A stretch of 64,000 bases of DNA from assembly GCA_963803105.1 (NCBI GenBank), contig CAWDLF010000003.1:25518-89517 (forward strand), in the 5' to 3' direction. The position numbers and the translations under genes are program-made. This document shows positions 32,912-56,687 of this stretch, piece by piece (within the stretch, counting starts at the first letter, position 1; every line of letters starts with the position of its first letter). The notes beneath the pieces are model-generated. The model was not told where the DNA came from, searched no databases, and was given only the letters and a program-made list of their open reading frames with translations. Source of the DNA: Terriglobia bacterium. GTDB taxonomy: Bacteria; Acidobacteriota; Terriglobia; Acidiferrales; UBA7541.

Positions 32912-35900
32912 GTCCGTCCAAGCCGTTCATTCTGCGGCCCGTCGCAACGTCTCTGTTGATGGTGGGCATCATGCTAGCCGGGGCGGTGGCCTATTTCCAG
33001 CTCCCCGTCTCCGCCTTGCCGCAGGTCGACTATCCGACCATCCAGGTGCTCACGTTCTATCCCGGCGCGAGCCCCGATGTGATGGCTTCCGGCGTTACTA
33101 CTCCTCTCGAGCGCCAGTTCGGGCAAGTTCCCGGCCTGAACCAGATGACATCTACGAGTTCCTACGGCTGCTCGCTAATCACTCTGCAGTTTGAGCTCAA
33201 GGAAAACATTGACGTGGCGGAGCAGCAGGTGCAGGCGGCCATCAACGCCGCGACCACCTATTTGCCGCCCGATCTGCCGAATCCCCCGATCTACAGCAAG
33301 GTGAATCCGGCCGATACTCCGGTTCTGACGTTAGCGCTCACTTCCGAGACTTTGCCGCTCGCCAAAGTAGAGGATTTTGCGGACACCAATCTGGCGCAGA
33401 AGATTTCGCAGCTCTCCGGCGTAGGCTTGGTCTCCATCAGCGGAGGGCAGAAGCCGGCCGTACGCGTTCAAGCGAACCCCACAGCTCTGGCGGCGTATGG
33501 CATGAGCCTCGAAGATCTGCGCACCGCGCTTTCACAAGCCAACGTGGATCAAGCCAAGGGCACGCTGAACGGTCCTCGCCAGACCTTCACGATTAACGCC
33601 AACGACCAGATCCTGACCGCATCGAGCTATAGCCCGCTCATCGTCGCCTATCGGAACGGTAATCCCATACGTCTTTCCGACGTCGCGCAAGTGGTCGACG
33701 GAGTGGAGAATACGCAACAGGCTGCCTGGAGCGGTACCACTCCGGCCGTGGTTCTGAACATTCAGCGCCAGCCGGGCACCAATATTATCGGCGTGGTGGA
33801 TCGCGTCAAGGAACTGCTCCCGCGTCTACAGGCTTCGCTGCCGTCTTCGATTCACGTGGATGTCTTGACCGACCGCACCAGTACCATCCGCGCTTCGGTG
33901 AAGGATGTGCAGTTCGAATTGATGCTGACCATCGGCCTGGTTGTGCTGGTCATGTTCTTGTTTCTGCGCAGCGTCGCCGCGACCATCATCCCCAGCGTTG
34001 CCGTTCCTCTCTCGCTGGTGGGCACCTTTGGCGTGATGTACCTGCTTGGGTTCAGCCTGGACAACTTGTCTTTGATGGCCTTGACGATCTCCACGGGGTT
34101 CGTCGTTGACGACGCCATCGTCATGATCGAAAACATTTCACGGTTCATCGAGGAAGGGCATTCGCCCTTCGAAGCGGCGCTGAAGGGCTCCGAACAGATC
34201 GGATTCACGATTCTCTCGCTGACCGTCTCGCTGATCGCCGTGCTGATCCCGCTGCTATTTATGGGAGACGTTGTCGGCCGCCTGTTCCGCGAGTTCGCTA
34301 TCACCTTGGGCGTTACGATTCTTGTGTCCGCCTTCGTTTCTCTGACGCTGACTCCCATGATGTGCTCGCGCCTGCTGCACCGTATCGAAGAGTCGCGCCA
34401 GAGCCGCTTTTTCCGCATCTCCGAGGATTTCTTCGATCGCACCATCGCTTCGTACGGGCGCGGCGTGAAGTTCGTCTTGCGGCACCAGACGGCCACTCTG
34501 TTTGTTACCTTCGGCACGCTCATCCTTACGCTTGTGCTGTTCTACTACGTCCCTAAAGGTTTCTTTCCGGTGCAGGATACCGGTGTGATCATCGGAATCT
34601 CCGAGGCGCCGCAGTCGGTTTCTTTTTCCGCCATGGCCGAGCGGCAACAGGCACTGGCTGCTGTGATTCTGAAAGATCCTGACGTGGTCAGCCTGTCCTC
34701 GTTTATCGGCGTCGACGGTACGAACCTCACTCCCAATAGCGGCAGAATTCAGATCAACCTAAAGCCACGCGAAGAAAGAAAAGACGATGCTTCGGCCATT
34801 ATCCGCCGCCTGCAACCGCGAGTCGAACAGGTCGAGGGAATTGCGCTGTTCATGCAGCCAGTGCAGGACCTCAGCATCGAAGACCGGGTGAGCCGCACGC
34901 AATATCAGTACTCCATCGAGGACACGGATTCCAACGAACTCGCCCAGTGGGCGCCGCGGCTGGTGGAAGAATTGAAGAAGCTCCCGCAATTGCGCGATGT
35001 CGCTACTGACCAGCAAGATCAGGGCTTGCGCGCCAATCTCGTGATCGACCGCGATAGCGCCGCCCGACTAGGTATCCTGCCCGCCGCCATCGACCAGACC
35101 CTGTATGACGCCTTCGGGCAGCGCCAAGTGTCGACCATGTTCACGCAACTGAACCAGTACCACGTGATTCTGGAAGTGGATCAGCATTTCCAGCAAAATC
35201 CGGATGCGCTCAAGGATATTTACGTGAAGTCCTCGAACGGCACGCAGGTGCCCTTGAGCGCGTTTACCCGTTACGAGACATCCACGTCGACTCTGGCGGT
35301 AAACCACCAGGGGCAGTTTCCGGTGGTGACGCTATCGTTCAACCTGGCGCCCGGATCTTCCCTAGGAGATGCCGTCAACGCGATTCACCGTGTGGAGGCC
35401 CAGATCGGTCTACCAGCCTCCGTCCACCCCAGTTTTCAAGGCATGGCCCAGGTGTTTCAATCCTCGCTCGCCAACGAGCCGGTGCTGATTCTCGCGGCCC
35501 TGATCACCGTATATATCGTCCTGGGAGTTCTGTACGAAAGCTACATTCATCCGTTGACGATTCTCTCTACGCTCCCCTCCGCGGGAGTCGGCGCCCTGCT
35601 CGCGCTGATGTTGTGCCACACGGAATTCAGCGTGATTGCGCTGATTGGCATCATTCTCCTGATTGGTATCGTGCAGAAAAACGCGATCATGATGATCGAC
35701 TTCGCGCTCGATGCCGAGCGCCGGGAAGGGAAGAGTCCCGAGGAGGCGATCTATCAGGCCTGCTTGCTGCGCTTCCGTCCCATTATGATGACGACCATGG
35801 CCGCCATGCTCGGCGGTTTGCCGCTAGCCCTCGGCAGCGGTACCGGAGCTGAGTTGCGCCGTCCGCTGGGAATCAGCATCGTCGGCGGCTTGGTTGTGAG

Positions 35901-36018
35901 CCAGATGCTTACTCTCTTCACCACACCGGTCGTGTATTTGTGGTTTGACCGCTTGGCGCAGCGATTTTCGGGAAGTCACGCCAGCAAGCTAGTGGAGCAG
36001 GGCTCCACGGCGGACTAG
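32908..36018 (+). CDS. mdtB: RND multidrug efflux permease (MdtB/MuxB-like)
   Basis: 1036 aa. The [12 protein letters not shown] start, 12-TM AcrB topology and [11 protein letters not shown] motif are typical. Confidence 0.9.
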
Positions 36019-36026
36019 AACCGAAC

Positions 36027-39000
36027 ATGCACATCTCGGCTCCATTCATTAAGAGGCCGGTGGGCACCATGCTGCTCACGTTGGCGGTGCTTCTCGCCGG
36101 CTCTATTGCCTACCACTTCCTGCCGGTGGGTCCGTTACCGGAAGTGGAATTTCCGACCATTCAAGTTCAAGGCGGGTTGCCGGGCGCGAGCCCGGAAACG
36201 ATGGCCTCGGCCGTTGCCACGCCGCTCGAACGTCAGTTCGGCCGCATTGCCGGCATCACTGAAATGACGTCGACTAGCATGCTCGGCTCGACCAACATCA
36301 CGCTGCAATTCGATCTGAGCCGCAATATCGATGCGGCCGCGCGTGACGTGCAAGCGGCCATCAATGCCTCCGCGGGACAACTCCCGCCGGGCTGCCCAAC
36401 CTTCCGACGTATCGCAAGGTGAATCCCGCCGATGCTCCCATTCTGATTTTGGCGTTGACCTCTGAGACGCTGCCCGTGAGCGCCCTGTACGACGCCGCGG
36501 ACTCGATCATTTCGCAGAAGATTTCGCAGGTGAGCGGCGTCGGCCAAGTGACCGTCGGCGGAGGTGCCCGGCCCGCCGTGCGTGTGGAGCTGAATCCCAC
36601 CGTTTTGGCGAAATACGGTCTCAGCTTGGAGCAGGTGCGCACGGCGCTGACGCAATTCAACGCCAATACACCCAAAGGGTCGGTTTCCAACGGAGCCACA
36701 CGGTGGGTTTTGACTGCCAATGACCAGCTGTTTGACCCCGGGCGCTACCGCGATCTCATTGTCGCCTATAGGAACGGAGCGCCGGTGCGCCTTGGGGATA
36801 TCGCCGACGTCCGCGAGTCGGTCGAGAATTTGTACGCAGCCGGCCTTGTGGACAGCAAGCCGGCCATCGTTATCATCATCAATCGGCAGCCGGGAGCCAA
36901 CATCGTCGGCACCGTCGACAACGTGATGGCCATGCTTCCCTCGGTGAAAGCGTCGATCCCCGCGGCCATGAATTTGATGGTCGAACACGACCGCACACAG
37001 ACGATTCGCGCTTCGGTAAAGGACATCCAGGGAACCTTGCTGCTCACTGTCTTTCTCGTCGTAATGGTAATCTTTGCCTTTCTGCGCAGCGTGCGCGCCA
37101 CCATCATTCCCGCCGTGGCCGTGCCGGTCTCCCTGGTTGGTACCTTTGGGGTGATGTATTTGGTCGGCTATTCAGTGGACAACTTATCGCTGATGGCGCT
37201 GACCATCGTCACAGGCTTCGTCGTCGATGACGCCATCGTGGTCATCGAGAATATTACCCGCTATCTCGAAGCCGGCATGGCGCCCTATGAAGCGGCGTTG
37301 AAGGGCTCTGCCGAAATTGGCTTTACGGTGCTCTCCATGAGCACTTCCTTGGTGGCAGTATTCATTCCCATTCTCATGATGGGCGGCATCGTGGGGCGGT
37401 TGTTCCGCGAGTTCGCCGTCACCTTGAGCGTGGCGATCGGAATGTCACTGCTGGTCTCGCTGACCGTCACACCCATGATGTGCGCGACGATCCTGAAGCC
37501 GGCCAAGAAGGAAGGCCACAACTGGCTCTATCGCACAAGCGAAAGTGGTTTCAACGCGCTCCTGGCGGCCTACGAACGCGGCGTCATATGGGTTTTGAAA
37601 CATCAGCCGTTTACGCTCGGCGCGACCATCGCCACCGTTTGCCTCAGCATCTTGCTCTACTGGTACATTCCCAAGGGATTTTTCCCGCAGCAGGACATCG
37701 GCTCGCTGGGCGGAGCGATCCTTGGCGCGCAGGACATTTCTTTCGACATGATGCGCCAGAAGCAAAAGCAATACAGTGACATCGTGATGGCTGATCCGGC
37801 CGTTGGCAGCGTGACGGCCTTTGTTGGCGGCAACGCCATGAATAGCGGGCGGCTGATGGTGCACTTGAAACCGCGCGACCAAAGGGACGCCAGCGCCGAC
37901 CAGGTAATTGGGCGGCTTCGCAGGAAACTGGCCACCGTTCCTGGTGGGCAGCTTTTCCTACAGGCTGATCAGGACATCCGTGTCGGCGGGCGCCAGGCCA
38001 ACTCCCAGTATCAGTTCACGCTGGAGAGTGAAGACATCGATGAGCTGAACCGCTGGGCCCCGATCGTGTACGACAAGCTCAAGACGCTCCCTGAACTGCG
38101 TGATCTGTCGACCGACCAGCAGGTTGCCGGTCTTGAAGCCAATCTGGTGATCGATCGCGACACTGCCTATCGACTGGGCATACCGGCGCAAACGATCGAC
38201 AACACGTTGTACGATGCCTTCGGCCAGCGGCAGGTCTCCACACTGTACGCGCCGATGAACGAGTATCACGTGGTCATGGAAGTGAGTAACGCTTTCCAGC
38301 AGAATCCCGACGCATTGAAAAACATATACGTGACATCTTCGACCGGTGCGCAGGTGCCCTTGAGCTCCTTTACGCACTACGAAGCGAAGACCACATCGCT
38401 CTCTGTGAACCATCAGGGGCAGTTTCCCGCCATCACGCTTTCTTTCAACCTCGCTCCCAACGTGGCCTTGGGAGATGCGGTCACGGCCGTGGAGGTTGCT
38501 GCGCGAGACGCGGGGATGCCCAGCACGATTCAAGCCAGCTTCCAGGGCACGGCGCAGGCCTTCCAATCTTCTTTGAAGAACGAGCCGATTCTGATTCTCG
38601 CCGCCATCTCTGCGGTCTACATAGTGCTGGGGATGCTGTATGAGAGTTACATCCACCCGATCACGATTCTTTCCACGCTGCCATCGGCGGGCGTGGGCGC
38701 TTTGTTGGCGTTGTTGATTTGCCGCACGGACTTGAGCGTGATCGCGCTGATTGGCATCATTTTGCTTATCGGAATCGTGAAGAAGAACGCCATTATGATG
38801 GTGGACTTCGCCATCGATACCGAGCGTAAGCACGGCAAGTCGCCGGAGGACGCCATTTACGAAGCCTGCATGCTGCGCTTCCGCCCCATCATGATGACCA
38901 CCATGGCGGCCCTGCTCGGCGGTTTGCCCCTGGCTCTCGGCACCGGAACGGGATCGGAACTGCGCCGGCCGCTCGGAATCAGCATCGTAGGAGGCTTGCT

Positions 39001-39151
39001 CGTCAGCCAGCTGCTGACACTGTTTACCACTCCGGTTGTGTATCTCTATATGGATCGGCTCCGCGTCTTCTTGCAGGGCCCCAAGCGCGCGTCTGCGAAG
39101 CGCCCTGTGGACTTGCGACCCTCCACTCCGTCTGCTTCACCGCTCGCCTGA
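36027..39151 (+). pseudogene. mdtC: RND multidrug efflux permease (MdtC/MuxC-like) interrupted by a single -1 frameshift near 36389-36392
   Basis: ORFs 36027..36422 and 36419..39151 are the N- and C-terminal parts of one AcrB-family protein. Adding one base in the GGG run restores ...[25 protein letters not shown]..., which parallels [22 protein letters not shown] in the upstream paralog. Confidence 0.85.
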
Positions 39152-39225
39152 TCGTTCCCTAGTCACCCCGATAGCTCCATGCCGTCGTATGCCTGTGATA
39201 AACTATGCCAGTTGTTTTTCCGTGT

Positions 39226-39302
39226 GCGCTCGTAGCTCAGCTGGATAGAGCGTCTGCCTACGAAGCAGAAGGTCCGGTGTTCGAATCACCGCGGGCGCAC
39301 CA
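39226..39302 (+). tRNA. tRNA-Arg (anticodon ACG)
   Basis: The 77-nt sequence folds by eye into a cloverleaf. Acceptor GCGCTCG/CGGGCGC, D arm GCTC..GAGC, anticodon arm TCTGC-CTACGAA-GCAGA, T arm CGGTG-TTCGAAT-CACCG, discriminator A and an encoded CCA. Confidence 0.95.
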
Positions 39303-39305
39303 TTC
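39258..39305 (+). repeat. att copy 1 (inside the intact tRNA-Arg, from the anticodon loop to 3 nt past CCA)
   Basis: The 48-bp string ctacgaagcagaaggtccggtgttcgaatcaccgcgggcgcaccattc is identical to 43239-43286. Confidence 0.9.
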
Positions 39306-39319
39306 ATTTCCTCAATGTT

Positions 39320-40510
39320 TTATTGAGTGTTTGCAAGGACAGCCTCCTCCACGGCTGCTTCTGCTTGACGCCCATTAGCGCCCAATACGGGGTTAGAAGT
39401 GAGTGTTCTGGGAAGTTCAAAACCAACTCCCATCGACAACGCCACATCCTTGCGGAACTGCAAATCATCGCGCACCCGGTCATAGCGGTCTGACATGTCT
39501 CGCCCGGCGTGGCCCATCCAAAACTTGAGCAGGCCGTCCGGACAATGCAGGTTGCGAAGATGCGTGTTCCTGAAGCGGCGGAAAGCATGGAAGCCGCAAC
39601 GTGGGATTTTGAGGCTGTCTAGTAGGGGATGAAGTTCCCGCCGCAGCGTGTTGCTTTGGCCCATCGGAGTCCCCGTGTCGGTCTCGAAGATGAAACCAGA
39701 CGAACGGTTTCCGATGTAGGTCTTGAGCAGGCTGGCAACGTCCGGGTGCAGATCAACGACGCGAAAGGCATTCATCGTCTTGGGTTTCAGCACCTTGCCG
39801 TTCCAAACCCCTTGCTCGACTTTGACAGACGAACCATCGAAGTGCCGGACTTCAAGGGCGCATAGCTCCCCGGCCCTCAGCCCGGTAGCCGCGAACAAGA
39901 GGGCTGCCATTCGCATCCGTCCGCTCGCTGCTTTCACAAGTTCAGCAACCTGCACACCTGTGAACGAGGGTTTTCGTTGTCTCGTCTCGTCAATGGCGGG
40001 TAGGTCTATGAATTTGTGGTTCCATGTCGTCGGAAAAAGCTGATCGCCTTCACCGTTTACCACGCTGGCTTTCACCAACTTCACCACGAGGACAATGCTA
40101 CGGATGGACGTTGGTGAAAGCTTTTTCTTTGCCAAGCGTTCAACGAGCGAGCGCACTGCACCGTTGCCGATATCCGACAAAGGCACTTCACCGATGCGCG
40201 GATACAGGTGTTTTCGGAGGATGCTTCGCCAGTTATGGGAAACGCTTGGTTTGATCGGCGTACTTCGGTTTTCGCACTGCTCGATCCACCGCATCGCGGC
40301 CGTGCGAAAAGTTGGAGTTGTTATTCGGGAAGGAGCTACGAGATTCTTATTTACAGCGACGAGTTCAGCTTGCATCGCGTTCAATGCACTCCGACGTGTA
40401 GGTAGATCGTCGAAGCCGCCGAGGAACTTCTGCACGCGGGCGGCGTCGCCGTTGTCCTTGATCGAAATAGTCCTCGTAAAGCCTAACTGCCCAGCCGTGA
40501 GTTGTTTCAA
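39320..40510 (-). CDS. int: Tyrosine-type site-specific integrase (phage integrase family)
   Basis: 396 aa. The C-terminal catalytic region has GLRAGELCAL (Arg), HAFRRFRNTHL (His-x-x-Arg) and GHAGRDMSDRY (His...Tyr). The stop lies 17 nt from the tRNA 3' end. Confidence 0.95.
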   Translation of the reverse strand: MKQLTAGQLGFTRTISIKDNGDAARVQKFLGGFDDLPTRRSALNAMQAELVAVNKNLVAPSRITTPTFRTAAMRWIEQCENRSTPIKPSVSHNWRSILRKHLYPRIGEVPLSDIGNGAVRSLVERLAKKKLSPTSIRSIVLVVKLVKASVVNGEGDQLFPTTWNHKFIDLPAIDETRQRKPSFTGVQVAELVKAASGRMRMAALLFAATGLRAGELCALEVRHFDGSSVKVEQGVWNGKVLKPKTMNAFRVVDLHPDVASLLKTYIGNRSSGFIFETDTGTPMGQSNTLRRELHPLLDSLKIPRCGFHAFRRFRNTHLRNLHCPDGLLKFWMGHAGRDMSDRYDRVRDDLQFRKDVALSMGVGFELPRTLTSNPVLGANGRQAEAAVEEAVLANTQ

Positions 40511-40604
40511 TCAATTGCCCGTCCTGGTGCCGTCTGCGGCTCAAAGTTCTCTCTCCTTTGAACCCGTCAACGGCGCGCGATTGTTTCGTTCTTTACGTGA
40601 GCAC

Positions 40605-40853
40605 ATGTCTCGCATGGCGTCGGACGAGCAATTGGCAACAGCGGCTGGTGCTGTAGAACGTGCGAAAGACAAGGTCCGAACAGCGGTTCAAGAGGAAGCT
40701 CAATCGATCAACGAGCGCAACGCCGTTGAGGACAGGTTGCTGGCCGCTCGCGGAGAACTCGCTGCGATTATGCAACAGGAGTACAGAATCAAGGCAGAGC
40801 TGGATGGGGAGTCGTATCGTGATCCAGAACTAGGCTTGGATGTACCAGCTTAA
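40605..40853 (+). CDS. Small coiled-coil protein (82 aa), divergent from the integrase
   Basis: ATG at 40605. The charged heptad-like sequence is EEAQSINERNAVEDRLLAARGELAAIMQQEYRIKAELD. The longer ORF annotation overlaps the integrase and was trimmed. Confidence 0.4.
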   Translation: MSRMASDEQLATAAGAVERAKDKVRTAVQEEAQSINERNAVEDRLLAARGELAAIMQQEYRIKAELDGESYRDPELGLDVPA

Positions 40854-41111
40854 CGAGTTTGTCGATGCGGCCGCATCCGTGTCGACAAAAAGCGCCAGGG
40901 GCGGGAACTGAAGAGCCGTGCATCTGGCACCGTCGGACGCTCCGAATGACGTCCGACACAAGATCCCAGTTCCATAATAAATACTCAAGGAACAGGAACG
41001 GTTGGAGAGCTTGGGGGTTCTTCCGCACCCCCCGATGACTCTCTTCCCCCAAGTGCGATCTTCGTACTAGGAACAGCGGGCAACTGGTCGTCTGCAGGCG
41101 CGAATGCAGCG

Positions 41112-41456
41112 ATGATTGCCACCGCGCCTGCGGTTCTAGCAGCTGCTGGTGCCGTCGGTGGGGTCGCTGTTGTTGGGGAAATTGCTTCATCGATCGGGAG
41201 CACGATATCGGCGGTTTCGGCGACGGTTTGGCAGACCGGAGTAGCCGTTGCGGGTACCGCCGCTGCAATCGGATCCGCGTTAAACACGTGGACCATGCAG
41301 ATTGAAGCCGCTAACCCAGCACTCACACTCACTATCGTCAGTTTGGCAAATGGGTTCGAGGCGGGTGAAGATTCGTCGGCTCCAGAGCTCGATGATTTTG
41401 TAAACCGATTGGGATGGGCTATAAACATCATAGGGCAACTGGCAGACTGGTGGTAG
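41112..41456 (+). CDS. Small Ala/Gly-rich hydrophobic protein (114 aa) ending in ...GQLADWW
   Basis: This is the first possible start in an open frame. It lies 27 nt upstream of the CPBP protease gene on the same strand. All other frames here are also open, so strand choice rests on operon logic. Confidence 0.4.
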   Translation: MIATAPAVLAAAGAVGGVAVVGEIASSIGSTISAVSATVWQTGVAVAGTAAAIGSALNTWTMQIEAANPALTLTIVSLANGFEAGEDSSAPELDDFVNRLGWAINIIGQLADWW

Positions 41457-41483
41457 ATTGCGTCAAGTAGAAAACATTGCCGG

Positions 41484-42260
41484 TTGATAACGAGGCATCT
41501 TCAGTCAGCAATCTGCTATCAAGGGAGGACCTTGACCGAGCTGAACGCTTTTTTAGCGCTTGTGGCATTTCCACTCATCTGGCTCGTAACCCCAGAGCCA
41601 GTGTCCAACCGTTGGGTTCGGCAGCACCAATCGCCAGCTCTGCCTCCGGATATCGCGGCACAATCAGAGAAGAATGGCCGATACCTTTCCTTCGTCAAGT
41701 ACGCATTACTCCTAGTCGTCCTTCGTTTGCTTGCCGCACAAGACTTTCGAAACATCATTTCGCTCGACGAACATTCCCGTCCGTGGCGGCAAATCATACC
41801 AGTGGCGATAGCGGCGGGACTTCTATTATTTGGTTTGCGGCGCCTCATCGTTTTTGTATCCCCAGCGATAGCCTGTACCGAAGATCATGATTACCTTCTC
41901 CGGGGCCCGGTCTCCCTGTGGTTGCTGATTTTTGCGGTGGGGGCCTTCACCGAAGAGTTATGGAGAGCGTTATGTATATCAGGTTTGCAGCGAAATGATC
42001 TCAACGCAATAGCAGCTGATCTCGTGGCGGCGTGCTTCTTCTCTGTTACTCACTTGATGGGCAGACCCTCCCGAATCCCAGAGGGGGTCGGCAATGTCGG
42101 TTCCGAGATGTTGGTGGGTTTGGTACTTGGTGGGCTATTTATACAGTCTGGGACCTTTGTTCCAGCAGCTCTTGCCAGCATAATTTACTACATCACTAAC
42201 CTGTACTGGCTTCGGCGCCGATTCAGAACCTCGTTGATGGGTGACAGAAGACGTCGATGA
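41484..42260 (+). CDS. CPBP family intramembrane glutamic endopeptidase (CAAX protease / Abi / bacteriocin self-immunity family)
   Basis: Multi-TM protein with motif 1 FTEELWRAL (EExxxR) and motif 2 FFSVTHL (FxxxH). A C-terminal helix IIYYITNLY occupies the motif-3 position. The start is uncertain (TTG at 41484 or TTG at 41532 after AAGGGAGGA). Confidence 0.8.
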   Translation: MITRHLQSAICYQGRTLTELNAFLALVAFPLIWLVTPEPVSNRWVRQHQSPALPPDIAAQSEKNGRYLSFVKYALLLVVLRLLAAQDFRNIISLDEHSRPWRQIIPVAIAAGLLLFGLRRLIVFVSPAIACTEDHDYLLRGPVSLWLLIFAVGAFTEELWRALCISGLQRNDLNAIAADLVAACFFSVTHLMGRPSRIPEGVGNVGSEMLVGLVLGGLFIQSGTFVPAALASIIYYITNLYWLRRRFRTSLMGDRRRR

Positions 42261-43031
42261 TGCCTGGTTCCTTCCAATGCGCTCGCGAGTAGGACAGATC
42301 CGGGAGGCCCGCAATCGGGACCAGCGCGGCACTCAGAACGCGAGCGATCGTCCTGGAAGGAAAGCGATTTGCCGGACGCCTCAGAATATCTGACTCAAAC
42401 CCCCTGATCTTTCTACCAGTCTGCTACCACTTATCTCCTCTTGGTGTCCAGCGCTGTCCGGTTGTGTCCACTCGAAGTTTGCAATAGGCAGAGCAAGATT
42501 GGGTAAATCGCAGCTTTTCCTAGCATTCCAGGAAAGGTCTGCGGAAGAAGGTGTTTCAACCTCCGACGGCTTTTGTCATCGAATTGTCATCGAGAGTTGC
42601 TTCCGGAGCCTAAAAACACCTAAAGCATCATCACTAAACGACTGTCTTATCAACGGCACCTAACACGGCAGAACGTCGGATTGTCCTTGAGAGGGACAAA
42701 TCCCTTCAAACAACCATGCTTTTCTAAGGTCGCGGCTATCTGGAGCGACACTGGCCGGCGCAGTCGTGGTCAAGCGCGCGCGGCTCTGGGTCGAGCTTGA
42801 ACACCCGCGGCGGCGAAGAGCCAGCAGACATCCCCACAGTGTCGAGGTCACTTCGATTCCGAGAGGAGGCGTCTGAAGCTAACGCTCTACCGATGACAGC
42901 CAAAGAGCGGGGCATTTCGAGTACGGAAAAAGTACGGAAGCCGCGATGAAACAGCCCAAATAACCGCAATTCCACCGAATGACGGAAACGGAACTCATTG
43001 ATTCCAAATAACTGGAATAGCGACAGTCTGA

Positions 43032-43076
43032 CTGTGGCACCGAGGGTCGCGGGTTCAATCCCCGTCGCTCACCCCA
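43032..43076 (+). pseudogene. 3' fragment of a tRNA-His gene (anticodon loop CTGTGGC through ...CGCTCAC-C-CCA)
   Basis: T arm GCGGG-TTCAATC-CCCGT, acceptor 3' strand CGCTCAC, His-specific discriminator C and CCA. GTG sits in a 7-nt loop context. No matching 5' half (GTGAGCG, D arm) lies upstream. Confidence 0.6.
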
Positions 43077-43238
43077 ACCCCTTCCCCAATGTTTTAGCGG
43101 GTTGTAGCAAGAGCACCCTCGGTTTGGGCGATAGGGGCCTGACGCCCAATAACGCCCTTTGAGACCACTAAAATTCGAGAGAGTTTTCACTTATAAACCG
43201 CGCGCCGTCAACAGGTTAGCGAATTTTGTATTGTTTAG

Positions 43239-43286
43239 CTACGAAGCAGAAGGTCCGGTGTTCGAATCACCGCGGGCGCACCATTC
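43239..43286 (+). repeat. att copy 2 (48/48 identical to the tRNA-Arg 3' part)
   Basis: Direct comparison with 39258-39305. Confidence 0.9.
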
Positions 43287-43373
43287 TATTTCTCGTCCTT
43301 CGCATTCAGTAACTCTTCCTAGACACTTCTCCGTGACACATCTCCTCCGGAGGTGAGTTGTTAAGCTTGGTAA

Positions 43374-43943
43374 CTACTTTTTGTTGAGGTCGTCGTCCTT
43401 GTAATATTTCGTACCTTGCAGGGTCAATTGGAGGGCGAGGCCATTCTTGGTGATCTGGTAGACCCACACTCCCGGGGCAACTTCAGCCGCTCCCGAGTAA
43501 GCTCCACCCTTCTCGCCCACTTTGGCAGCAGCGTCCACTTGCCCTGAACCGGACCAGCCCGAGTTCAGAAATTTTGCTAGTACCTTGTTGTTCGCGAAGA
43601 CGAACACCGCGGCATAGTCTTTCACTCCGAGGCCCAGACCGGCACCGACTGAACCCATCTTCATGAAGGTCTCTTGCTTGGTCTTGTTGTTGACGGCCAG
43701 TCCTGAACCGCGTGCGGTGCTCAACAGCAATACGTTCACGCCCATGTTGTCGAAAACAGCGTATCCCGCGGCTTTCTGGATAGTTGCTTGGGAGGTGGGT
43801 TCCATCTTGTACAAATCCTGCAAGGCCTCGGTGGCCATCTTGCGGGTTTTATCCCTTTTTTCGTCGTTGTCATCTGCGGCAATGCATAGACCTGCGGAGA
43901 GCATCGTCATCGCCAGAATCGAGGCGATCATCCTGATTTTCAC
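43374..43943 (-). CDS. SYLF (Ysc84/DUF500-like) lipid-binding domain protein, secreted
   Basis: AAGGAAGGA RBS before the GTG at 43943 (an ATG at 43931 is the alternative) and a signal peptide. The Gly-rich SYLF-like core is GSGLAVNNKT...GSVGAGLGLGVKDY...GWSGSGQVDAAA. Confidence 0.75.
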   Translation of the reverse strand: MKIRMIASILAMTMLSAGLCIAADDNDEKRDKTRKMATEALQDLYKMEPTSQATIQKAAGYAVFDNMGVNVLLLSTARGSGLAVNNKTKQETFMKMGSVGAGLGLGVKDYAAVFVFANNKVLAKFLNSGWSGSGQVDAAAKVGEKGGAYSGAAEVAPGVWVYQITKNGLALQLTLQGTKYYKDDDLNKK

Positions 43944-44116
43944 TGGGATCCTTCCTTTCCGGAGTCCGGCGGCCACGTTCTGAGCTTGTTGATCCCCACA
44001 GACGCGAAGAGGCCTCCTGCCCATCGACTCAAACTAAAACTCCAGGTCTCCTGGTGTAGCTGATCCCCAAAGCAGGGACAACTAGGGCTTTCCCTAGGGC
44101 GGTGTTTGAGAGCTGG

Positions 44117-44151
44117 AGGTCCGGTGTTCGAATCACCGCGGGCGCACCATT
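44117..44151 (+). repeat. att copy 3 (35 bp identical to the tRNA-Arg T arm, acceptor and CCA plus 2 nt)
   Basis: aggtccggtgttcgaatcaccgcgggcgcaccatt matches 39270-39304. The flank after it (tttctctcgt) resembles the flank after copy 2 (tatttctcgt). Confidence 0.85.
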
Positions 44152-44306
44152 TTTCTCTCGTAACTCTAACCTCCGTATCGTCCCGTCATTTGTTGTAATC
44201 CCGAAAAGCTGGCCACCACCGGCTCGGTTTGTCCTATGATGTGAGCATCCTAGCCCGGACGACTCGTCGTTTTGCGTTCAAATCTCGGTTTCAGTGGAGA
44301 GAAATC

Positions 44307-45371
44307 ATGGACTTCAAGCAGTCGCTCGGGCTTTTCTTCGGCTTATTGATCCTGGCATCGGTGGTGCAGGCAGACGTTGTGCAGCTGAAGAGCGGAGATC
44401 GCGTTACCGGCACCATCGAAGTCTCCGACGGCAAAGACATGACCGTCAAAACCGATTTTGCGGGCGAGATCAAGATCGGTTGGAGCTTCGTGAAGGAAAT
44501 CAGCACCGACAAGCCCGTCTACGTGGTGACGCCCGAGAAGAAAACGGTCAGCGGCAACGTGACCACCGATGGCGCGAACCTGATCATCCACGCGCCGAGC
44601 GGAGGCACGGTTGAAGTGCCGATGGCGCAAGTAACAGTCGTGCGTTCGTCTGACGTAGAAGCGGCCTACGAGAAGAGTCTGCATCCGGGTGTGCTCGAAG
44701 GATGGAAAGGCGGAGTGAACCTGGGGTTCGCCCTGGCCCGAGGAAATAGCGAAACGACCAATCTGAACACTGGATTCACCGCCGACCGCAAGACCATGAA
44801 CGACGAGATTACGATGTACGAGTCGTCACTTTACTCCACCAACGATCAGCCCGGTGGAAGCATGATCGCCAACTCGATTCTGGGCGGGATCAAATACGAT
44901 CGCAACATCACAAAACGCATTTTTGCGTTTGGCAGCGCCGACTACGCGTACGACGAACTGCAGGATCTGAACTTGCGGCAGATCTATAGCGGCGGCCTTG
45001 GTTTGCACGCCATCAACACGCCGAATACCACGCTCGATCTTCTTGCCGGCTTGAACTACACGCGTGAGACCTACGGTGGCGGCGCCACATATGTCGCCCG
45101 GAACCTGGCTGGCCTCACGCTCGGCGAGGACTTCATGCACAAGCTGGGGAAGTCGACTACCATTACCGAGGTTTTCTACTTCTATCCCGACCTTTCGAAC
45201 ACCAGCGAGTACAGATTCTCTCTCGACGCCGCCTCGGTGACGAAGATCAACAGCTGGCTCGGGTGGCAAATGACGCTCAGCGACCGCTACGTCACCAACC
45301 CCCCGACTCCCGGCACAAAATCAAACGACATCATCTTTTCGACGGGCGTAAACATCAGTTTCGCTCATTGA
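44307..45371 (+). CDS. DUF481-like outer-membrane beta-barrel protein (YdiY-like)
   Basis: GGAGAG RBS and a signal peptide. The N-terminal LKSGDRVTGTI motif and a C-terminal barrel ending in F-x-H are present. Confidence 0.75.
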   Translation: MDFKQSLGLFFGLLILASVVQADVVQLKSGDRVTGTIEVSDGKDMTVKTDFAGEIKIGWSFVKEISTDKPVYVVTPEKKTVSGNVTTDGANLIIHAPSGGTVEVPMAQVTVVRSSDVEAAYEKSLHPGVLEGWKGGVNLGFALARGNSETTNLNTGFTADRKTMNDEITMYESSLYSTNDQPGGSMIANSILGGIKYDRNITKRIFAFGSADYAYDELQDLNLRQIYSGGLGLHAINTPNTTLDLLAGLNYTRETYGGGATYVARNLAGLTLGEDFMHKLGKSTTITEVFYFYPDLSNTSEYRFSLDAASVTKINSWLGWQMTLSDRYVTNPPTPGTKSNDIIFSTGVNISFAH

Positions 45372-45552
45372 TGGTGTGGGGCGGCCGGATCGCGCCAGAA
45401 CTTAAGTTGACTTGGGGGTGGTCAGGCGCTGACGCGGAATTCTTGCGCCTTGTGCGCCTCCGAAGTATAGTGCTGCCAGCATTTTGCGGCCGACATCGCG
45501 GGTCAACGGGCGTGAGCCTTTAAGGCCAGCGCGAGGCTCAAATGGGGGAAAG

Positions 45553-46245
45553 ATGAATCGCAAGCGAATGGTAGCGGGACAGCGCGGCAGGTTGACACGC
45601 GTGGCCGGGATGGGCGTCGTAGGCGCCCTCGTATTGGGAGTAGCAGCTCTTGTTTTCGCGCAAGCACCGGGCCCCGGGCAGGCGCCGCCTCCGCCGCCAA
45701 CCCCAGGCCCCGTTCGTCTCGATATCGCTGATGGCTCGACTGCTTCCTATCGCGTACAGGAACAACTCGCCGGCATCAGCTTCCCCAACGATGCCGTGGG
45801 CAGCACGTCGGCCGTCACCGGCACACTCGCTCTGAACACCGATGGCACGGTGAACGTTGCTCAGTCCAAGCTCACCATCGACCTGCGCATGCTCAAGAGC
45901 GATCAGGATATGCGTGACGGCTACATCCAGAAGCGCACCCTCGAGACCGACAAGTTTCCGCTGGCCGAATTCGTTCCCAAGCGCGTCACCGGCTTGGCGA
46001 ACCCCCTTCCGAATACGGGGCAAACAGGCTTTCAGCTCACCGGCGACATGACCATCCACGGGACCACCAGCGAAGTTACCTGGAACGGCATCGCCACCTT
46101 CGGGCGCGATGGTACCGTCGCCGGGCGCGCTACCACCAACTTTACATTCGCTACCTTCGGCCTGATGAAGCCGACGCTCGCGCGCATCCTGAGCGTCGAC
46201 GACAAGATCCAACTCGAGGTCGCGTTCCGCTTCAAGCGCAGCTGA
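45553..46245 (+). CDS. YceI-like periplasmic protein
   Basis: GGGGGAAAG RBS and a TM/signal segment. The YceI-like pattern is S.ASYRVQE...G.F....G...V.G.L..., followed by L.G.LT.HG.T..V. Confidence 0.8.
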   Translation: MNRKRMVAGQRGRLTRVAGMGVVGALVLGVAALVFAQAPGPGQAPPPPPTPGPVRLDIADGSTASYRVQEQLAGISFPNDAVGSTSAVTGTLALNTDGTVNVAQSKLTIDLRMLKSDQDMRDGYIQKRTLETDKFPLAEFVPKRVTGLANPLPNTGQTGFQLTGDMTIHGTTSEVTWNGIATFGRDGTVAGRATTNFTFATFGLMKPTLARILSVDDKIQLEVAFRFKRS

Positions 46246-46261
46246 TTACGAGCGGCGCAAG

Positions 46262-46384
46262 ATGAAAGCCGAACGTAAGCGGCTGATCGCGATCGTCGCC
46301 GTACTCGGCTTCGTCGCGTTGGTCTTTGCCGGATTAGTAATCTCGCTTCTGCCCGGCCTGCGGATGATGTTTGGATCGGGCTAG
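46262..46384 (+). CDS. Possible 40-aa single-TM peptide (MKAERKRLIAIVAVLGFVALVFAGLVISLLPGLRMMFGSG)
   Basis: It was found by reading the sequence and is below the ORF-track cutoff. It starts 17 nt after the yceI-like stop. Confidence 0.3.
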   Translation: MKAERKRLIAIVAVLGFVALVFAGLVISLLPGLRMMFGSG

Positions 46385-46410
46385 GGGGCGGCGGCTCAAG
46401 CGCAGCTGAT

Positions 46411-47172
46411 TCAGTCGATTTTGCTTTCGTCCCGGTACATCACTTTGTGCCGTGTGTTCTCAATCCACTCATCAATCTGCTCGATGGTCATGAAATTCTT
46501 GGGGTCGAAACGCTCCCAGTTCATGATCTGGTCGAGTGGCTTTTTCCAGCGTTTGTAAGAGGGCTTCAGCGGAGGCCCGAAACACATCACGTCGATAATG
46601 GAGATGCCCTCCGGCACTCCGAGCAGCGGACGCATCCTGGTCTGGATATCCTCTTGGCCGATCGCGGTGATCCACCACACGGCGTAGCCGAGCGCCGCCG
46701 CGGCCAAATGCGCGGACATTGTGGACGCAGCCACCGACTGAAGCAGAATCCTCTCGGCGTTCTGTTGGTAGCGCTTGTCCTCGGGCGAGCCGTCCAGAAG
46801 GACCGGGAAGGCCCGCAAAAACCGGTAGTCGCAACAGACCACGATGAGCCCGGGCGCCGTCTTCACGCCGCGGTAATTCGGGGTAGGGAATCCCATTCGG
46901 AGCTTGGCGCGGTGCTGCTGCTCGTCGAGAAAGCATTTCGTCAGCGCTTCGCGGGTATCCGGGTTGTTGACGATGATGTAATGCCAGGGCTGCGCGTTGG
47001 CACCCGACGGGCCATGGCGCGCGGCTTCCAGAATCATCTCAAAATGCTCCTTCGGCACCTTGTAGCCCGGCACGAATTCGCGGTTGGTCATCCGGTTCCG
47101 CACCACATCCATCAGCGCGTTGTACCGCTCTACTTTGTTGAATTGTCCGGTCTCTTTTTCGATTGAAGCCAT
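46411..47172 (-). CDS. Nitroreductase family protein
   Basis: RHGPSGANAQPWHYIIV and a typical nitroreductase fold length (253 aa). Confidence 0.85.
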   Translation of the reverse strand: MASIEKETGQFNKVERYNALMDVVRNRMTNREFVPGYKVPKEHFEMILEAARHGPSGANAQPWHYIIVNNPDTREALTKCFLDEQQHRAKLRMGFPTPNYRGVKTAPGLIVVCCDYRFLRAFPVLLDGSPEDKRYQQNAERILLQSVAASTMSAHLAAAALGYAVWWITAIGQEDIQTRMRPLLGVPEGISIIDVMCFGPPLKPSYKRWKKPLDQIMNWERFDPKNFMTIEQIDEWIENTRHKVMYRDESKID

Positions 47173-47237
47173 CGTATACCTCCCTCGTCGTGTACCCCTG
47201 GAGTGTACTCGTGGTATCCTTCCGAGCTGCGTCCCAT

Positions 47238-48173
47238 ATGAGAATGAAGTCCATTCCTAATCGGCATGTACCAGATCTGCGGCTGAGGCATTTGCGGATC
47301 TTCAAGTCGTTGCTGACCGAACGGAGCCTCACCCGCGCCGCCCAGGCGTCGGGAACAACTCAGCCCACTCTGAGCAAGGTGCTCTTTAGACTACGCCGCG
47401 AACTAGGGGATCCGCTGTTTGTCCGCATCGGTCTTCGGATGGAGCCGACGGCCAAGGCGCTCGCACTGGCCGGCCCGGTCGATCGAATTCTGAACGCAGC
47501 CCACGCCCTGCAACCCGACCACGCGGAATTCAATGCCTTGACCTCTGAACGCATTTTTCGCATTTTAATCAGCGACAGCGGCGTGATCCGGCTGTTGCCT
47601 CTGCTGATGTCTCGGCTCGCGTCGGAAGCGCCAGAACTGCGTTTGGTCGCCGTTCCGATCGACTCACACAAGCTGTTGCCAAAACTCGAGTCGGGAGACG
47701 TAGATCTTGCGGTGGGCTCATTCCCGTCATTGGAAAGAGGTATCCGGCGCCGGCGGTTATACGCTGAAGGGTATCTGAGCCTCGTCCGTAGGGATCATCC
47801 GGAACTGAGCCGGCTCCACTTGCGGAGGGTATTTGTGTCCCAGCGTCACGTGCTGGTTGCGGGGTCAAGCGCGGGGCACGCCGGACACCAAATCGCGGAA
47901 AGAGTGCTGGAGGAAGCTGTTGCACCAAAGTACGTCGCGCTTAGGGTTACGAGTTTTGTTTCGGCCGCGCTGGTTGCAAAGCGCACCAACGCCATCGCGA
48001 CGATGCCAGCCAAACTTGGGGCGATGCTCGCTTCAGAACTGGAGTTGGAGACCTTCGATGCACCCATCGAAATTCCTCGCATCGAGATCGCGCAGTATTG
48101 GCACGAGCGCTCCGACCGCGACCCTTGCAATCGCTGGATTCGCTCGCTACTAGCGGACGTCTCCCACCTTTGA
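47238..48173 (+). CDS. LysR family transcriptional regulator (divergent from the nitroreductase)
   Basis: N-terminal HTH LRHLRIFKSLLTERSLTRAAQASGTTQPTLSKVL and a LysR substrate-binding domain. Confidence 0.9.
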   Translation: MRMKSIPNRHVPDLRLRHLRIFKSLLTERSLTRAAQASGTTQPTLSKVLFRLRRELGDPLFVRIGLRMEPTAKALALAGPVDRILNAAHALQPDHAEFNALTSERIFRILISDSGVIRLLPLLMSRLASEAPELRLVAVPIDSHKLLPKLESGDVDLAVGSFPSLERGIRRRRLYAEGYLSLVRRDHPELSRLHLRRVFVSQRHVLVAGSSAGHAGHQIAERVLEEAVAPKYVALRVTSFVSAALVAKRTNAIATMPAKLGAMLASELELETFDAPIEIPRIEIAQYWHERSDRDPCNRWIRSLLADVSHL

Positions 48174-48189
48174 GCTGGACGCAACTCGG

Positions 48190-49269
48190 TTATTTCGGTG
48201 CGACCCAGGCCAGCCCGTCGGGGTAATTTCCCGTGTTCATCTGCTTCACGACCGTCCAGTCCGACATTCGAATCACGGCGATCTTCTGGGCCTTATCGCA
48301 GGAGACGTAGGCGTACTTTCCATCGGGGCGCAGCAGGATTTCCTGCGGCGTGGGTGGCACGTCGATGGTGCGCGCGAGCGTCATCGTCTTCAGATCGATC
48401 ACCGATACCTTATTGGCCTCGACCGATGCTACCAAGAGCCAACGGCCATCGGAAGTCGGCACCGCGCCATAACCGGAAGAGGGAACGGTTATCCGGGTCT
48501 TCACCGTATTCGTCGCCGTGTCGATTACATCCAGCTCCGGCTTGGTCCAATCGGAAGTGAACACCATTCGATCGTCCGGTGAAATCGAAATGCGCTGCAG
48601 CTTCCACTTTCGCTCTGGATGAGTGGGCGTGCCGTCGACGGAAACCGGAATCGAGGCAGTTTTCGTTCGCGCCTTCAAATCGAGAACCGACACTGTGCCG
48701 GAAAGCACGTTCGACGTATAGCCGAGGCGCCCGTCGTGCGATATGGCAACGTTGTGTGACGCGGGTTCGCCGGTCGGGATCGATCCGACCACCTTGCGGG
48801 TACGAGGGTCAACGATACTCACCGAATTCGCAATTTCGGTCGTCACGTAGATCAGGCCGTCCGTCGGGTTCCAGACTGCGAAATGCGGCCGAACCCCGCG
48901 TCCGAAATCGATCGTGTCCACAACCTTTCGCGCGTCTACGTCGATGACCGCCATGGTGCTGCCGTCCGTGCCCGGCTGACCCAAGTTGACGTTGCTGTAA
49001 ATGGGCGCGTACGCAAAGCGTCCGTCGGGAGAAGTGACCACTTCGTGCGCGGTGATGCCGCCCTCGTTCACCTTCGCCAGTTGCTCGCCGGTCTCCGGAT
49101 CGAAGAAGGCGACGTACCCTTCGCCCTTGCGCCCGAGTTCGTCATTGGCGTTGACCACCAGCAGCAGCCCGTGGCGCGCGGTGTCGGCCGCCGGCCTTGC
49201 AGCTGACAACAGGAAGGCGCCAAAAACACAGGTCGCAAGAGCAGCAACGACGGAAAGACTACGTAGCAT
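48190..49269 (-). CDS. Secreted YVTN/YncE-like beta-propeller repeat protein
   Basis: Signal peptide and repeated units of about 40 aa (G..P..V..SPDG...YV.N....VSVID). Confidence 0.8.
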   Translation of the reverse strand: MLRSLSVVAALATCVFGAFLLSAARPAADTARHGLLLVVNANDELGRKGEGYVAFFDPETGEQLAKVNEGGITAHEVVTSPDGRFAYAPIYSNVNLGQPGTDGSTMAVIDVDARKVVDTIDFGRGVRPHFAVWNPTDGLIYVTTEIANSVSIVDPRTRKVVGSIPTGEPASHNVAISHDGRLGYTSNVLSGTVSVLDLKARTKTASIPVSVDGTPTHPERKWKLQRISISPDDRMVFTSDWTKPELDVIDTATNTVKTRITVPSSGYGAVPTSDGRWLLVASVEANKVSVIDLKTMTLARTIDVPPTPQEILLRPDGKYAYVSCDKAQKIAVIRMSDWTVVKQMNTGNYPDGLAWVAPK

Positions 49270-49397
49270 CGCGGATTACCTCTCATCAGACGCGCGCCGA
49301 GGGCTCGTCTGTCTTGCGCGAACATATGCTTAGCCGGTTTCGCTGTCAAGCGCGCCGAAAAACGAGCTGGAGTTCGCTCACTCTAGGCTTGAGCGGA

Positions 49398-49688
49398 CTA
49401 CGCGCCCTCGATAATTCGGATGTCTCGTTCCGCGCCGTTGCCGAGCACCTTCAACGCGGCGCGGTATGCGTCGCTTTCGTACGCTACGATCCCTTGCTCG
49501 ACGCTGTCAAATTCGATGGCCACAACCCGCTCCTTCAGGCCTGCCTCAAAAGTGCGCGTAGGTACGCCGCGGACGAGCACGCGGCCACCGGCCGCTTGCA
49601 GGGCCGGTCCCGCGAGCTTGGCGTATTCCGCCAGCGCGGTTGGGTTGGAAATGGAACGATAGAAAACCATCCAGTAAGCTTTAGCCAT
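49398..49688 (-). CDS. DUF1330 domain protein
   Basis: 96 aa. MAKAYWMVFYRSISNP...YAKLAGPALQAAGGRVLVRG...VAIEFDSVEQ...Y.S..Y is the typical DUF1330 pattern. Confidence 0.8.
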   Translation of the reverse strand: MAKAYWMVFYRSISNPTALAEYAKLAGPALQAAGGRVLVRGVPTRTFEAGLKERVVAIEFDSVEQGIVAYESDAYRAALKVLGNGAERDIRIIEGA

Positions 49689-49775
49689 CGACCCCTCCGG
49701 AATGAATGACGAATATTAGCCGCTGCATTCCCGCAGATGCCATTTTTTGTGCTTCGCGGATTCCGCCGCAGCAGC

Positions 49776-51338: not shown

Positions 51339-51544
51339 GGGTCCTTCTGAAATTGTTGCCCGGCATGACTCATCACCGGTGCCACTTGCGAGCGAGCAGT
51401 TTTTGTATTATCGGGGAGCGGCAACGTCAAGTCAACACGCCGGTTGCTGTCGATGTGGTCCGCTTTGGGCGAAACCAAATGTTCCGGCGTCGCGTTTCAT
51501 TCTTGAGCCTGTGCTGCGGCAGGAACCTGTACAATGGCCACGCG

Positions 51545-52942: not shown

Positions 52943-53111
52943 AATTCTCCTCGGTACTCAGGAACTACTACAGGGAACAAGGTATTCCGCAGTCCTCCTG
53001 GTACTCGTAGGGTAGGGCGTGGAGTACAATATGCATACAGTCCGAGTGGCGTGCGCCGTTTGCACTTCCCCTAGCCCCGGGGCAACGCTCACACACCATC
53101 GGGAGATGAGA

Positions 53112-53768: not shown

Positions 53769-53791
53769 TCGATCAATCTCCTTGCGGCGCT

Positions 53792-54304: not shown

Positions 54305-54441
54305 GCTGGTTCTCCTTCCGACTGTGCTTTTTAGCGATCGCGCCGGCTCGCTTGACAAGGTGCGAACCCAAATGTAGCGTATCCGCTCGCTTTGCCAGCC
54401 GCAAATCACAGTAGAATCCTAGCGGGTTCGACGGAGAATGC

Positions 54442-56340: not shown

Positions 56341-56576
56341 TGCGAGGAAGACGTCTGTTCGCCCCGGTGGGCGTGCCACCATTTGCGCAGCGCCACGAAG
56401 GACCAAACCGACTCCACGAAGCCGAAGGGCCACGCTCCCTGCAAGAATCCATACACGGCCGCAAGTACGCAAGACGCCGCAAACGCCAGAATGAACCAGG
56501 GGCTGCGCTTCTCAAAGGCGTAGAAGATCAACATCGCTGTCACGGCGAAGAGTCCAAAAAGGGTCAGTGGATTCAC
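56337..56576 (-). CDS. Small membrane protein (79 aa, 2-3 TM)
   Basis: Hydrophobic ORF. It is convergent with fhs and overlaps its stop by 4 nt. Confidence 0.55.
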
Positions 56577-56687
56577 GGCGCTGCTTTGCTCCCGATGCGA
56601 AATTGTGTGCCTTCTTCATTGTCGCTCAATTCCCACTAGGTTAAAGTGTGCCTGACGAAATCTTAACGAAATCCTGACGGAAACTTG

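Follow-up and report, generated by a model that had tools for sequence, protein, structure and literature searches.

The stretch of DNA analysed here, a window of 64,000 nucleotides from the acidobacterial contig CAWDLF010000003.1 (Terriglobia bacterium), harbours next to the 3' end of a tRNA-Arg(ACG) gene an island composed of two segments, namely, a 3,981-bp module carrying a tyrosine integrase gene, hereafter module 1, and an 865-bp islet carrying a gene for a SYLF/Ysc84-domain lipoprotein (Table 1). This tRNA gene is the only one that ARAGORN detects in the window, and Rfam RF00005 scores it at 66 bits. Three direct repeats (DR) of its 3' end delimit the two segments. DR1 lies within the gene and comprises its last 45 nt and 3 further nt, the first base being the C of the anticodon loop CTACGAA and the last one being located 3 nt beyond the encoded CCA. 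By exact extension, DR2 is identical to it at 48 of 48 positions. DR3 is identical at 35 of 35 positions over 44117-44151 and extends, with one mismatch, to 37 nt when read from 44115. These three are the only matches to the core in the 64 kb, all on the plus strand, with none expected from 100 shuffles. Direct repeats of a target-tRNA 3' end next to an intact tRNA gene are characteristic of tRNA-inserted elements. The initial annotation, made from the letters alone, had described the intact 77-nt tRNA-Arg, the 48/48 repeat beginning in the anticodon loop, the 35-bp third copy and an integrase gene ending 17 nt from the tRNA, and had proposed an exact alignment of the repeats; the tRNA call, the alignments and the stop-codon spacing agree with it on each of these points. 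It was also right about the AT-richness of the island, which lies about 5 G+C points under its flanks (54-55% versus 59.6%): the G+C content is 54.5% in module 1 (3.9 kb) and 54.1% in the islet (0.87 kb), against 59.6 +/- 1.6% in background windows of 3.9 kb, none of which is as low. As for the description of the island as poor in open reading frames (ORFs), it holds for 42261-43238, where about 0.8-1 kb is devoid of a credible ORF, and fails for 39320-42260, which is coding.

The state of the locus without module 1 was found in a conspecific strain, represented by a 399,776-bp ENA contig (ERZ25039484 contig_57284, hereafter L102), which was retrieved by exact-protein look-up of the nitroreductase encoded at 46411-47172. 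The gene order of L102 is mdtB - mdtC - tRNA-Arg(ACG) - SYLF gene - DUF481 - YceI - nitroreductase, and the third repeat is located between the SYLF and DUF481 genes. In blastn comparisons, window positions 32442-39310 and 43239-57173 align with L102 at 99.2% and 98.6% identity, respectively, and on L102 the blocks share 54 bp, which represent the attachment (att) core. The sequence TATTTCTCG, found directly 3' of tRNA-Arg in L102, is the one that comes after DR2 in the window. L102 lacks exactly the 3,981 bp of the integrase module and has a single copy of the 48-bp core, as expected of an empty site in a close relative, and it contains both the islet and DR3, nearly identical to those of the window. 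The integrase module is consequently a precise strain-specific insertion that duplicates a 48-bp target, and the islet, which L102 keeps, would be older than the module. The comparison for empty sites that the initial annotation had suggested was thus positive, and its reading of a tandem accretion is supported in the form of a tRNA-anchored integrase module beside an older, integrase-less islet.

Other searches for syntenic loci were performed. Among 185,579 species genomes, DUF481 orthologues were found at 15 loci of Acidobacteriota, Candidatus Acidiferrales and relatives (L001-L015, 47-79% identity), none of them with a tRNA, a SYLF gene or another window gene nearby, and these loci are therefore uninformative on empty sites. 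The orthologues of 14 other acidobacterial species (50-79% identity) have no neighbour gene in common with the window on either side, and the neighbourhood is poorly conserved in this group. In JGI metagenomes, the best MdtC match reached 65% identity, and a tRNA-Arg followed mdtC in 0 of the 60 loci scanned. Exact look-ups of the DUF481 protein (354 aa) and of the SYLF protein (185 aa) returned no match.

With regard to the integrase, the ORF 39320-40510 on the minus strand codes for 396 residues and matches Pfam PF00589 (E = 1e-13) and PF22022. R212, K244, H308, R311, H334 and Y343 are invariant in an alignment of 16 family sequences and correspond to the catalytic residues R, K, H, R, H/W and Y of tyrosine recombinases, though the reading frame is broken near the 5' end. 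The protein has 466 homologues at E <= 1e-20, nearly all from soil metagenomes and metagenome-assembled genomes, and six genomic contexts of the family were examined. The integrases P0001 and P0003 (73% and 70% identity) end 16-21 nt from the 3' end of a tRNA-His(GTG), in contexts L017 and L018-L020, and P0005 and P0007 (65% and 62%) end 18-25 nt from a tRNA-Lys(TTT), in contexts L021 and L120. In every tRNA-adjacent member examined, the window included, the integrase and the tRNA are convergent, and the window, with its spacing of 17 nt, has both the geometry and the arm motifs of this acidobacterial family (P0001-P0120). A second core extending from the anticodon loop to the 3' end is located 9,978 bp away in L017 and 10,051 bp away in L021, so these relatives are elements of about 10 kb. 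Genes for a resolvase, AAA_25, DUF5681, Tet_JBP and an Sf6-type terminase-like protein recur in the relatives, and no locus possesses all of them. The His-specific element of about 10 kb in L017 carries an Sf6-type small-terminase-like gene (5544-6071) and also a cold-shock-domain gene, a hint that the full-size members may be phage satellites. In IMG/VR, no close relative of the integrase (at most 34% identity) and no match to the attP junction were found. A further member, P0054 (58% identity; L121 10001-11287), has no tRNA adjoining its integrase and may use a non-tRNA target; a P-arm-like motif is present at L121 837-849, about 9 kb from that integrase.

Alignments revealed that the P and P' arms are conserved around the differing Arg, His and Lys cores. 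The integrase-side arm consists of the spacer CAATGTTTTA and of GACGCCC-NNNN-AACGCCC repeats located inside the final integrase codons, and in the window it is colinear with the sequence next to the core in the sister elements specific for His and Lys, and conserved relative to it. The far-side arm carries similar GACGCCC repeats as well as the motif GCGCGCCGTCAACrGGTTAG, which spans about 35 bp and lies at a distance of 13-22 nt from the core. A direct repeat, D4, pairs the P'-arm repeats of the window with positions 43137-43157. In addition, a 13-19-nt motif, CGCGCGCCGTCAAC(rGGTT), is present in one copy 5' of the integrase and in one inverted copy near the far att core; the upstream copy lies 20-45 nt 5' of the integrase start in the window, L017, L018, L021 and L120, and both copies of L017 carry one common variant base. 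The GACGCCC repeats are putative arm-type integrase sites, and the paired motif resembles an operator; it may act as an operator or as an arm site. All these family cis elements are present in module 1. The upstream motif, labelled RAV, had also been considered as N-terminal coding sequence, with its copy at 43199 as a pseudogene fragment of the integrase 5' end. This was rejected in favour of a non-coding site, because a conserved AAGGAG and TTG start lie downstream of the motif, because it recurs in inverted orientation 13-22 nt from His, Lys and Arg cores, and because its copies co-vary within L017.

Table 1. Features of the tRNA-Arg(ACG) island in the window, with motif pairs of related elements and differences from the conspecific contig L102 (positions refer to the window unless another contig is named).
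Feature	Position	Strand	Description
tRNA-Arg(ACG)	39226..39302	+	Intact target gene, holds the attL core (ARAGORN, Rfam RF00005)
DR1, 48-bp att core of attL	39258..39305	+	Anticodon loop to tRNA 3' end, plus TTC
P' arm	39306..39400		Spacer CAATGTTTTA and GACGCCC/AGCGCCC repeats (39363-39383); overlaps integrase 3' end
Tyrosine integrase gene	39320..40544	-	Family-type TTG start at 40544, preceded by AAGGAG
Operator-like motif CGCGCGCCGTTGACGGGTT	40561..40582		20-40 nt 5' of integrase start; inverted repeat I4 with P-arm motif
orf82, coiled-coil ORF	40605..40853	+	Fragment of a sister-element gene
orf114, Gly/Ala-rich hydrophobic orphan ORF	41112..41456	+	114 aa
CPBP/Rce1-like (Abi-type) intramembrane protease homologue	41484..42260	+	Cargo gene; PF02517, E = 1.4e-7
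Stretch without recognisable gene (about 770 bp)	42261..43031		Module 1
Relic tRNA-His att core	43032..43076	+	Anticodon loop (CTGTGG) to CCA
Relic P' arm and integrase-3' stub, His-type	43077..43160		Colinear with Arg/His/Lys core and P' regions
P arm adjoining the Arg core	43183..43238	+	Conserved motif TATAAACCGCGCGCCGTCAACAGGTTAGCGAATTT, conserved in L017 and L021
DR2, 48-bp att core in module 1 attR	43239..43286	+	Displaced tRNA 3'-end copy
Hypervariable islet spacer	43296..43375		Att core to SYLF stop; differs between the two strains
SYLF/Ysc84-domain lipoprotein gene	43374..43943	-	Sole gene of the islet; maximal ORF to 44024
DR3, attR of the older islet	44115..44151	+	tRNA 3'-end copy, also in L102
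Motif CGCGCGCCGTCAAC(rGGTT) pair, window	40561-40582, 43196-43217		
Motif CGCGCGCCGTCAAC(rGGTT) pair, L017	9912-9925, ~1270-1290		
Motif CGCGCGCCGTCAAC(rGGTT) pair, L021	9969-9982, 1283-1296		
Motif CGCGCGCCGTCAAC(rGGTT) pair, L120	10051-10063, 1910-1922		
Further window/L102 indels (about a dozen)	49176, 53058, 53808, 54250, 55446-55722, 56156		

Several features suggest that module 1 is decaying. Homologues match the integrase region in two frames, the first 33-59 residues (SRRRHQDGQLIETTHGWAVRLYE...) in one and the rest in another, and deletion of one C from the CCC at 40438-40440 yields an ORF of 407 residues, initiated at TTG 40544 and colinear with the homologues over its full length. 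As read from the sequence, a one-base frameshift after about 33 codons leaves the conserved N-terminal segment out of frame with the catalytic body. In lambda-type integrases, the N-terminal segment binds arm sites, and by analogy that of the module integrase is a predicted arm-binding domain. The Logan contig L016 (run ERR11630394) is identical to window 39275-41527, frameshift included, and since the same sequence is found in this independent contig, the frameshift is probably real. L016 ends 31 nt into the repeat, as expected where a k-mer assembly graph branches. Its other end, at window 41527, falls within the start of the CPBP gene, which may be explained by low coverage or, in that sample, by an element variant that carries other cargo.

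The remaining gene content was examined in the same respect. By BLASTP, orf82 matches residues 174-251 of a 261-aa protein of the sister element in L121 (5325-6110, minus strand; 33% identity over 78 aa, E = 1e-11), a similarity also detected by tblastx; it is a truncated piece of a longer gene of the family, homologous to the C-terminal third of the product. It has no Pfam, PHROG or PADLOC family, and its PDB matches were discarded as chance coiled-coil matches. No excisionase or recombination directionality factor (HTH_17, Xis or AlpA-type) was found among the module ORFs in Pfam, PHROGs and NCBIfam; such a gene is a frequent, non-universal feature of elements of this kind. Module 1 measures about 4 kb compared with about 10 kb for its relatives and is devoid of the genes for DUF5681, AAA_25 and a resolvase found repeatedly among them. 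No phage, transfer or replication gene was found in it with Pfam, PHROGs, NCBIfam and PADLOC. Within it, PHROGs matches the integrase only, its DNA has no blastn match among 50,697 phage records, Pfam and NCBIfam reveal no relaxase or type IV secretion family, and no DNA match was obtained in a plasmid collection. By gene content, the locus is not a prophage, a satellite of the phage-inducible chromosomal island type, an integrative and mobilisable element (IME) or an integrative and conjugative element (ICE). As to the cargo, PADLOC found nothing. In a search of 1.84 billion representative proteins, orf114 retrieved its own copy and a weak match to a 4668-aa repeat protein only. The CPBP protein has just five homologues, at most 47% identical and in unrelated contexts, and the complete protein was not found in a collection of 5.8 billion proteins. 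That the two would form a bacteriocin-plus-immunity or abortive-infection pair is a guess. In the following stretch without recognisable gene, the ORFs have no Pfam match, and neither an Rfam family nor similarity to the sister elements was detected.

The suggestion in the initial annotation that the first module may still be excisable therefore appears doubtful, given the integrase frameshift, the fragmentary orf82, the missing excisionase and a size less than half that of the relatives. The module is most likely immobile by itself. Its core and both arms look intact, which would leave it open to excision by a related integrase supplied in trans. The Lys-specific member L120 (ERZ25039484 contig_39484) originates from the same metagenome assembly as L102, and related integrases that might act in trans therefore co-occur in that soil sample.

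Inside module 1, 162 bp to the left of DR2, lies a second tRNA-derived core. It is identical at 45 of 45 positions to positions 32-76 of the tRNA-His of L018, and by blastn it matches the tRNA-His/integrase junctions of L017-L020. From left to right, the His core is followed by a stub that aligns colinearly with P' arms, then by the P-arm motif and finally by the Arg core, and the GACGCCC/AACGCCC repeats at 43137-43157 also occupy the position expected for the P-arm repeats of the Arg core. The closest integrases (70-73% identical) are His-specific. This relic looks like the fossil of a change of target tRNA. In the simplest reading, the int-attP end would be a hybrid in which the P' arm of a His-specific element was joined, by recombination probably inside the GACGCCC arm repeats common to both, to the P arm of a relative with Arg specificity, the His core being retained as a fossil. 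The relic might alternatively be a whole tRNA-His gene that has decayed; to the left of the 45-nt core, similarity is weak (13/20, with gaps), and Rfam finds nothing there. Just left of the relic, two copies of CCAAATAAC(C/T)G(C/G)AAT are located at 42956-42970 and 43004-43018, 48 nt apart.

The islet (43287-44151) extends from DR2, which in L102 is the tRNA itself, to DR3. Its gene product matches Pfam PF04366, NCBIfam NF049970 and PHROG 34572 (E = 2e-49). The gene is 99.5% identical to its L102 counterpart, there called with 189 aa. In the spacer between the att core and this gene, a 31-bp segment (43321-43352) is inverted compared with L102, with 30 matches out of 31 and a local score of 27 inverted versus 17 direct. 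This segment overlaps a palindrome (43336-43361), and the DNA around the spacer is about 99% identical between the strains. DR3 matches the tRNA from the variable region to the 3' end only, without the anticodon-loop part of the 48-bp core; the 13 nt preceding it differ at about half of the positions, and no resemblance to the 5' half of tRNA-Arg was detected upstream. An att site accounts for this pattern better than a tRNA gene in decay would. The islet is thus att-flanked and devoid of integrase and transfer genes, as are decayed islands of the cis-mobilisable element (CIME) type. Examination by eye revealed none of the arm motifs of the module 1 family in the islet, next to DR3 or next to the tRNA, and the islet therefore probably derives from an element unrelated to module 1. 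No empty site for the islet was found.

Altogether, we consider it likely that one tRNA-Arg(ACG) gene has served at its 3' end as the target of two unrelated integrative elements in succession and that both elements are decaying. The older element would have integrated first and lost its integrase, leaving the 865-bp SYLF islet bounded by the tRNA and DR3, a state that would survive in L102. An element of the tyrosine-integrase family would more recently have recombined with the intact tRNA through an attP in which P and P' arms typical of the family enclose 48 bp copied from the tRNA, anticodon loop to 3' end; the junction of the corresponding circle would run from 43238 through the core to 39306, namely, ...GTATTGTTTAG, core, ATTTCCTCAATG. 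This event would have rebuilt the tRNA from element DNA, set the integrase 17 nt downstream of it, and displaced DR2 together with the old islet by 3,981 bp in the outward direction. Reduced thereafter, the module would have retained the integrase, both att arms, the orf82 fragment, the orphan hydrophobic ORF and the CPBP/Abi-type protease, and the one-base frameshift would have split the N-terminal segment of the integrase from its catalytic body. The module would from then on be immobile unless a related integrase acted in trans, in a CIME-like manner. The recombination between His- and Arg-specific relatives proposed above would complete this scheme.

Some observations weigh against this succession of decaying elements. 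The sole comparator strain found is L102, and its state could also result from precise excision in an occupied ancestor; with either polarity, the event is a site-specific recombination at the 48-bp core. The integrase frameshift could be an assembly error, since about 15 indels of a single base separate the window from L102. About a dozen of them (last row of Table 1), mostly outside homopolymers, suggest noise in one of the two assemblies and reduce the trust to be placed in the frameshift. One of these differences, a one-base deletion near 36382, splits mdtC (36027-39151) into ORFs 36027-36422 and 36419-39151, while mdtC is intact in L102 (1041 aa); this may be either a real pseudogene or an assembly indel. 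Further, the 396-aa product initiated at TTG 40510 might keep some activity. Finally, the route by which the His relic arose is uncertain, because the left side of the His core shows no recognisable P arm of the family type.

Some of these points also bear on a different view of module 1, as a complete minimal element that is self-mobile thanks to a functional integrase, whether the frameshift is an assembly error or the 396-aa form is sufficient. Its perfect 48/48 direct repeats, a site that is polymorphic between strains 99% identical, catalytic residues that are all intact, and family-typical att arms and operator-like motif would all be expected of such an element, and the other indels between the window and L102 may be assembly errors. 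We nevertheless regard it as unlikely. The frameshifted sequence occurs in the independent assembly of ERR11630394 as well; the CCC concerned is a short homopolymer, and the four arginine codons preceding it are in the family frame, which fits a real one-base insertion. In addition, a gene fragment in place of an intact orf82 gene, the lack of a recognisable excisionase, a length of 4 kb rather than about 10 kb, and the missing DUF5681, AAA_25 and resolvase genes point to a reduced element.

Another possibility concerns the islet, which would be native DNA, with DR3 stemming from a decayed second tRNA-Arg gene or from an unrelated duplication. The islet indeed carries no integrase or other mobility gene, is present in both strains at about 99% identity, and is free of the arm motifs of the module 1 family. 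This reading is made improbable by a tRNA similarity that is limited to the 3' 35-37 nt and ends sharply, as in an att site, by a G+C content of 54.1% against a background of 59.6%, by the occurrence of the SYLF family (PHROG 34572) in phage genomes too, and by the DUF481 orthologues of 14 other species, which have no SYLF gene or tRNA nearby. As for a chimeric assembly join at the repeated tRNA sequence, for which the metagenome-type assembly with its indel noise and the tendency of 48-bp repeats to break short-read assembly graphs (L016 stopping 31 nt into the repeat) could be invoked, it is very hard to reconcile with two junctions placed exactly at the core, with the family-typical orientation and 17-nt integrase-tRNA spacing, with a module core identical to this very tRNA-Arg, the expected target, and with L016, in which 31 nt of the tRNA-Arg core are independently joined to the 3' end of the integrase.

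The succession of two decaying elements at one tRNA can be compared with known systems. tRNA-targeting tyrosine integrases have reportedly been divided into sublocation classes, with an attP that carries the tRNA part between the anticodon loop and the 3' end. The present family resembles the anticodon-loop type in that the core starts in the anticodon loop in the Arg, His and Lys members, the tRNA is reconstituted, and the integrase adjoins attP. As in lambda-type attP, repeats, here of the GACGCCC type and considered as putative sites, flank the core, and the integrase has a conserved N-terminal segment; unlike in lambda-type attP, there is a paired upstream/P-arm motif, which has no citable established counterpart. 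The stacking of islands at tRNA genes is textbook knowledge. Integration, decay to an att-flanked element without integrase and accretion of a newcomer form a published three-step model (PMC5704250). The sequence of events proposed here is the same as in the accretion of CIMEs described for ICESt1-type elements of Streptococcus thermophilus and for IMEs, and so is the outcome, three direct att copies (PMC5704250). By contrast with that model (PMC5704250), the newcomer entered the intact tRNA, on the attL side of the remnant, rather than attR. The present locus is also devoid of genes for conjugation or mobilisation, its two elements do not appear to be related, it belongs to an acidobacterium that has not been cultured, and mobilisation in cis is putative. 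Similarly, in the tycheposons of Prochlorococcus, newcomers push older elements outward at the tRNA and leave behind fragmented integrases, degenerated remnants and stray partial tRNAs (bioRxiv 10.1101/2020.12.28.424599). Module 1 shares with tycheposons the integration of a tyrosine-recombinase element into a tRNA, full and partial tRNA flanks, and cargo, and some tycheposon relatives are satellite-like with a small-terminase gene, which is reminiscent of the Sf6-type terminase-like gene of L017. It differs from them in having no replication module, and in the phylum and soil habitat of its host.

The main value of the locus is documentary, in that it offers a clean pair of occupied and empty sites from conspecific strains of an uncultured soil acidobacterium. 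Mobile elements of Acidobacteriota are poorly described, and the comparison defines an abundant integrase family in which geometry and arm motifs stay the same while the target tRNA varies. For annotation, it implies that the 396-aa integrase is a frameshifted product and that the locus is a decaying composite island and not an active element. Wider interest is confined to the His relic and the shared arm motifs. The relic beside the Arg core provides a concrete, testable hypothesis for the switching of tRNA targets, and we can tentatively propose, as a possibility that we rate clearly below even, that the module is a snapshot of such a switch, taken in an undescribed acidobacterial family of tycheposon- or satellite-like elements of about 10 kb. 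If the junction arose by recombination inside the GACGCCC repeats common to P and P' arms, the exchange of int-attP cassettes via the arm repeats would represent a general route of retargeting in this tRNA-hopping family.

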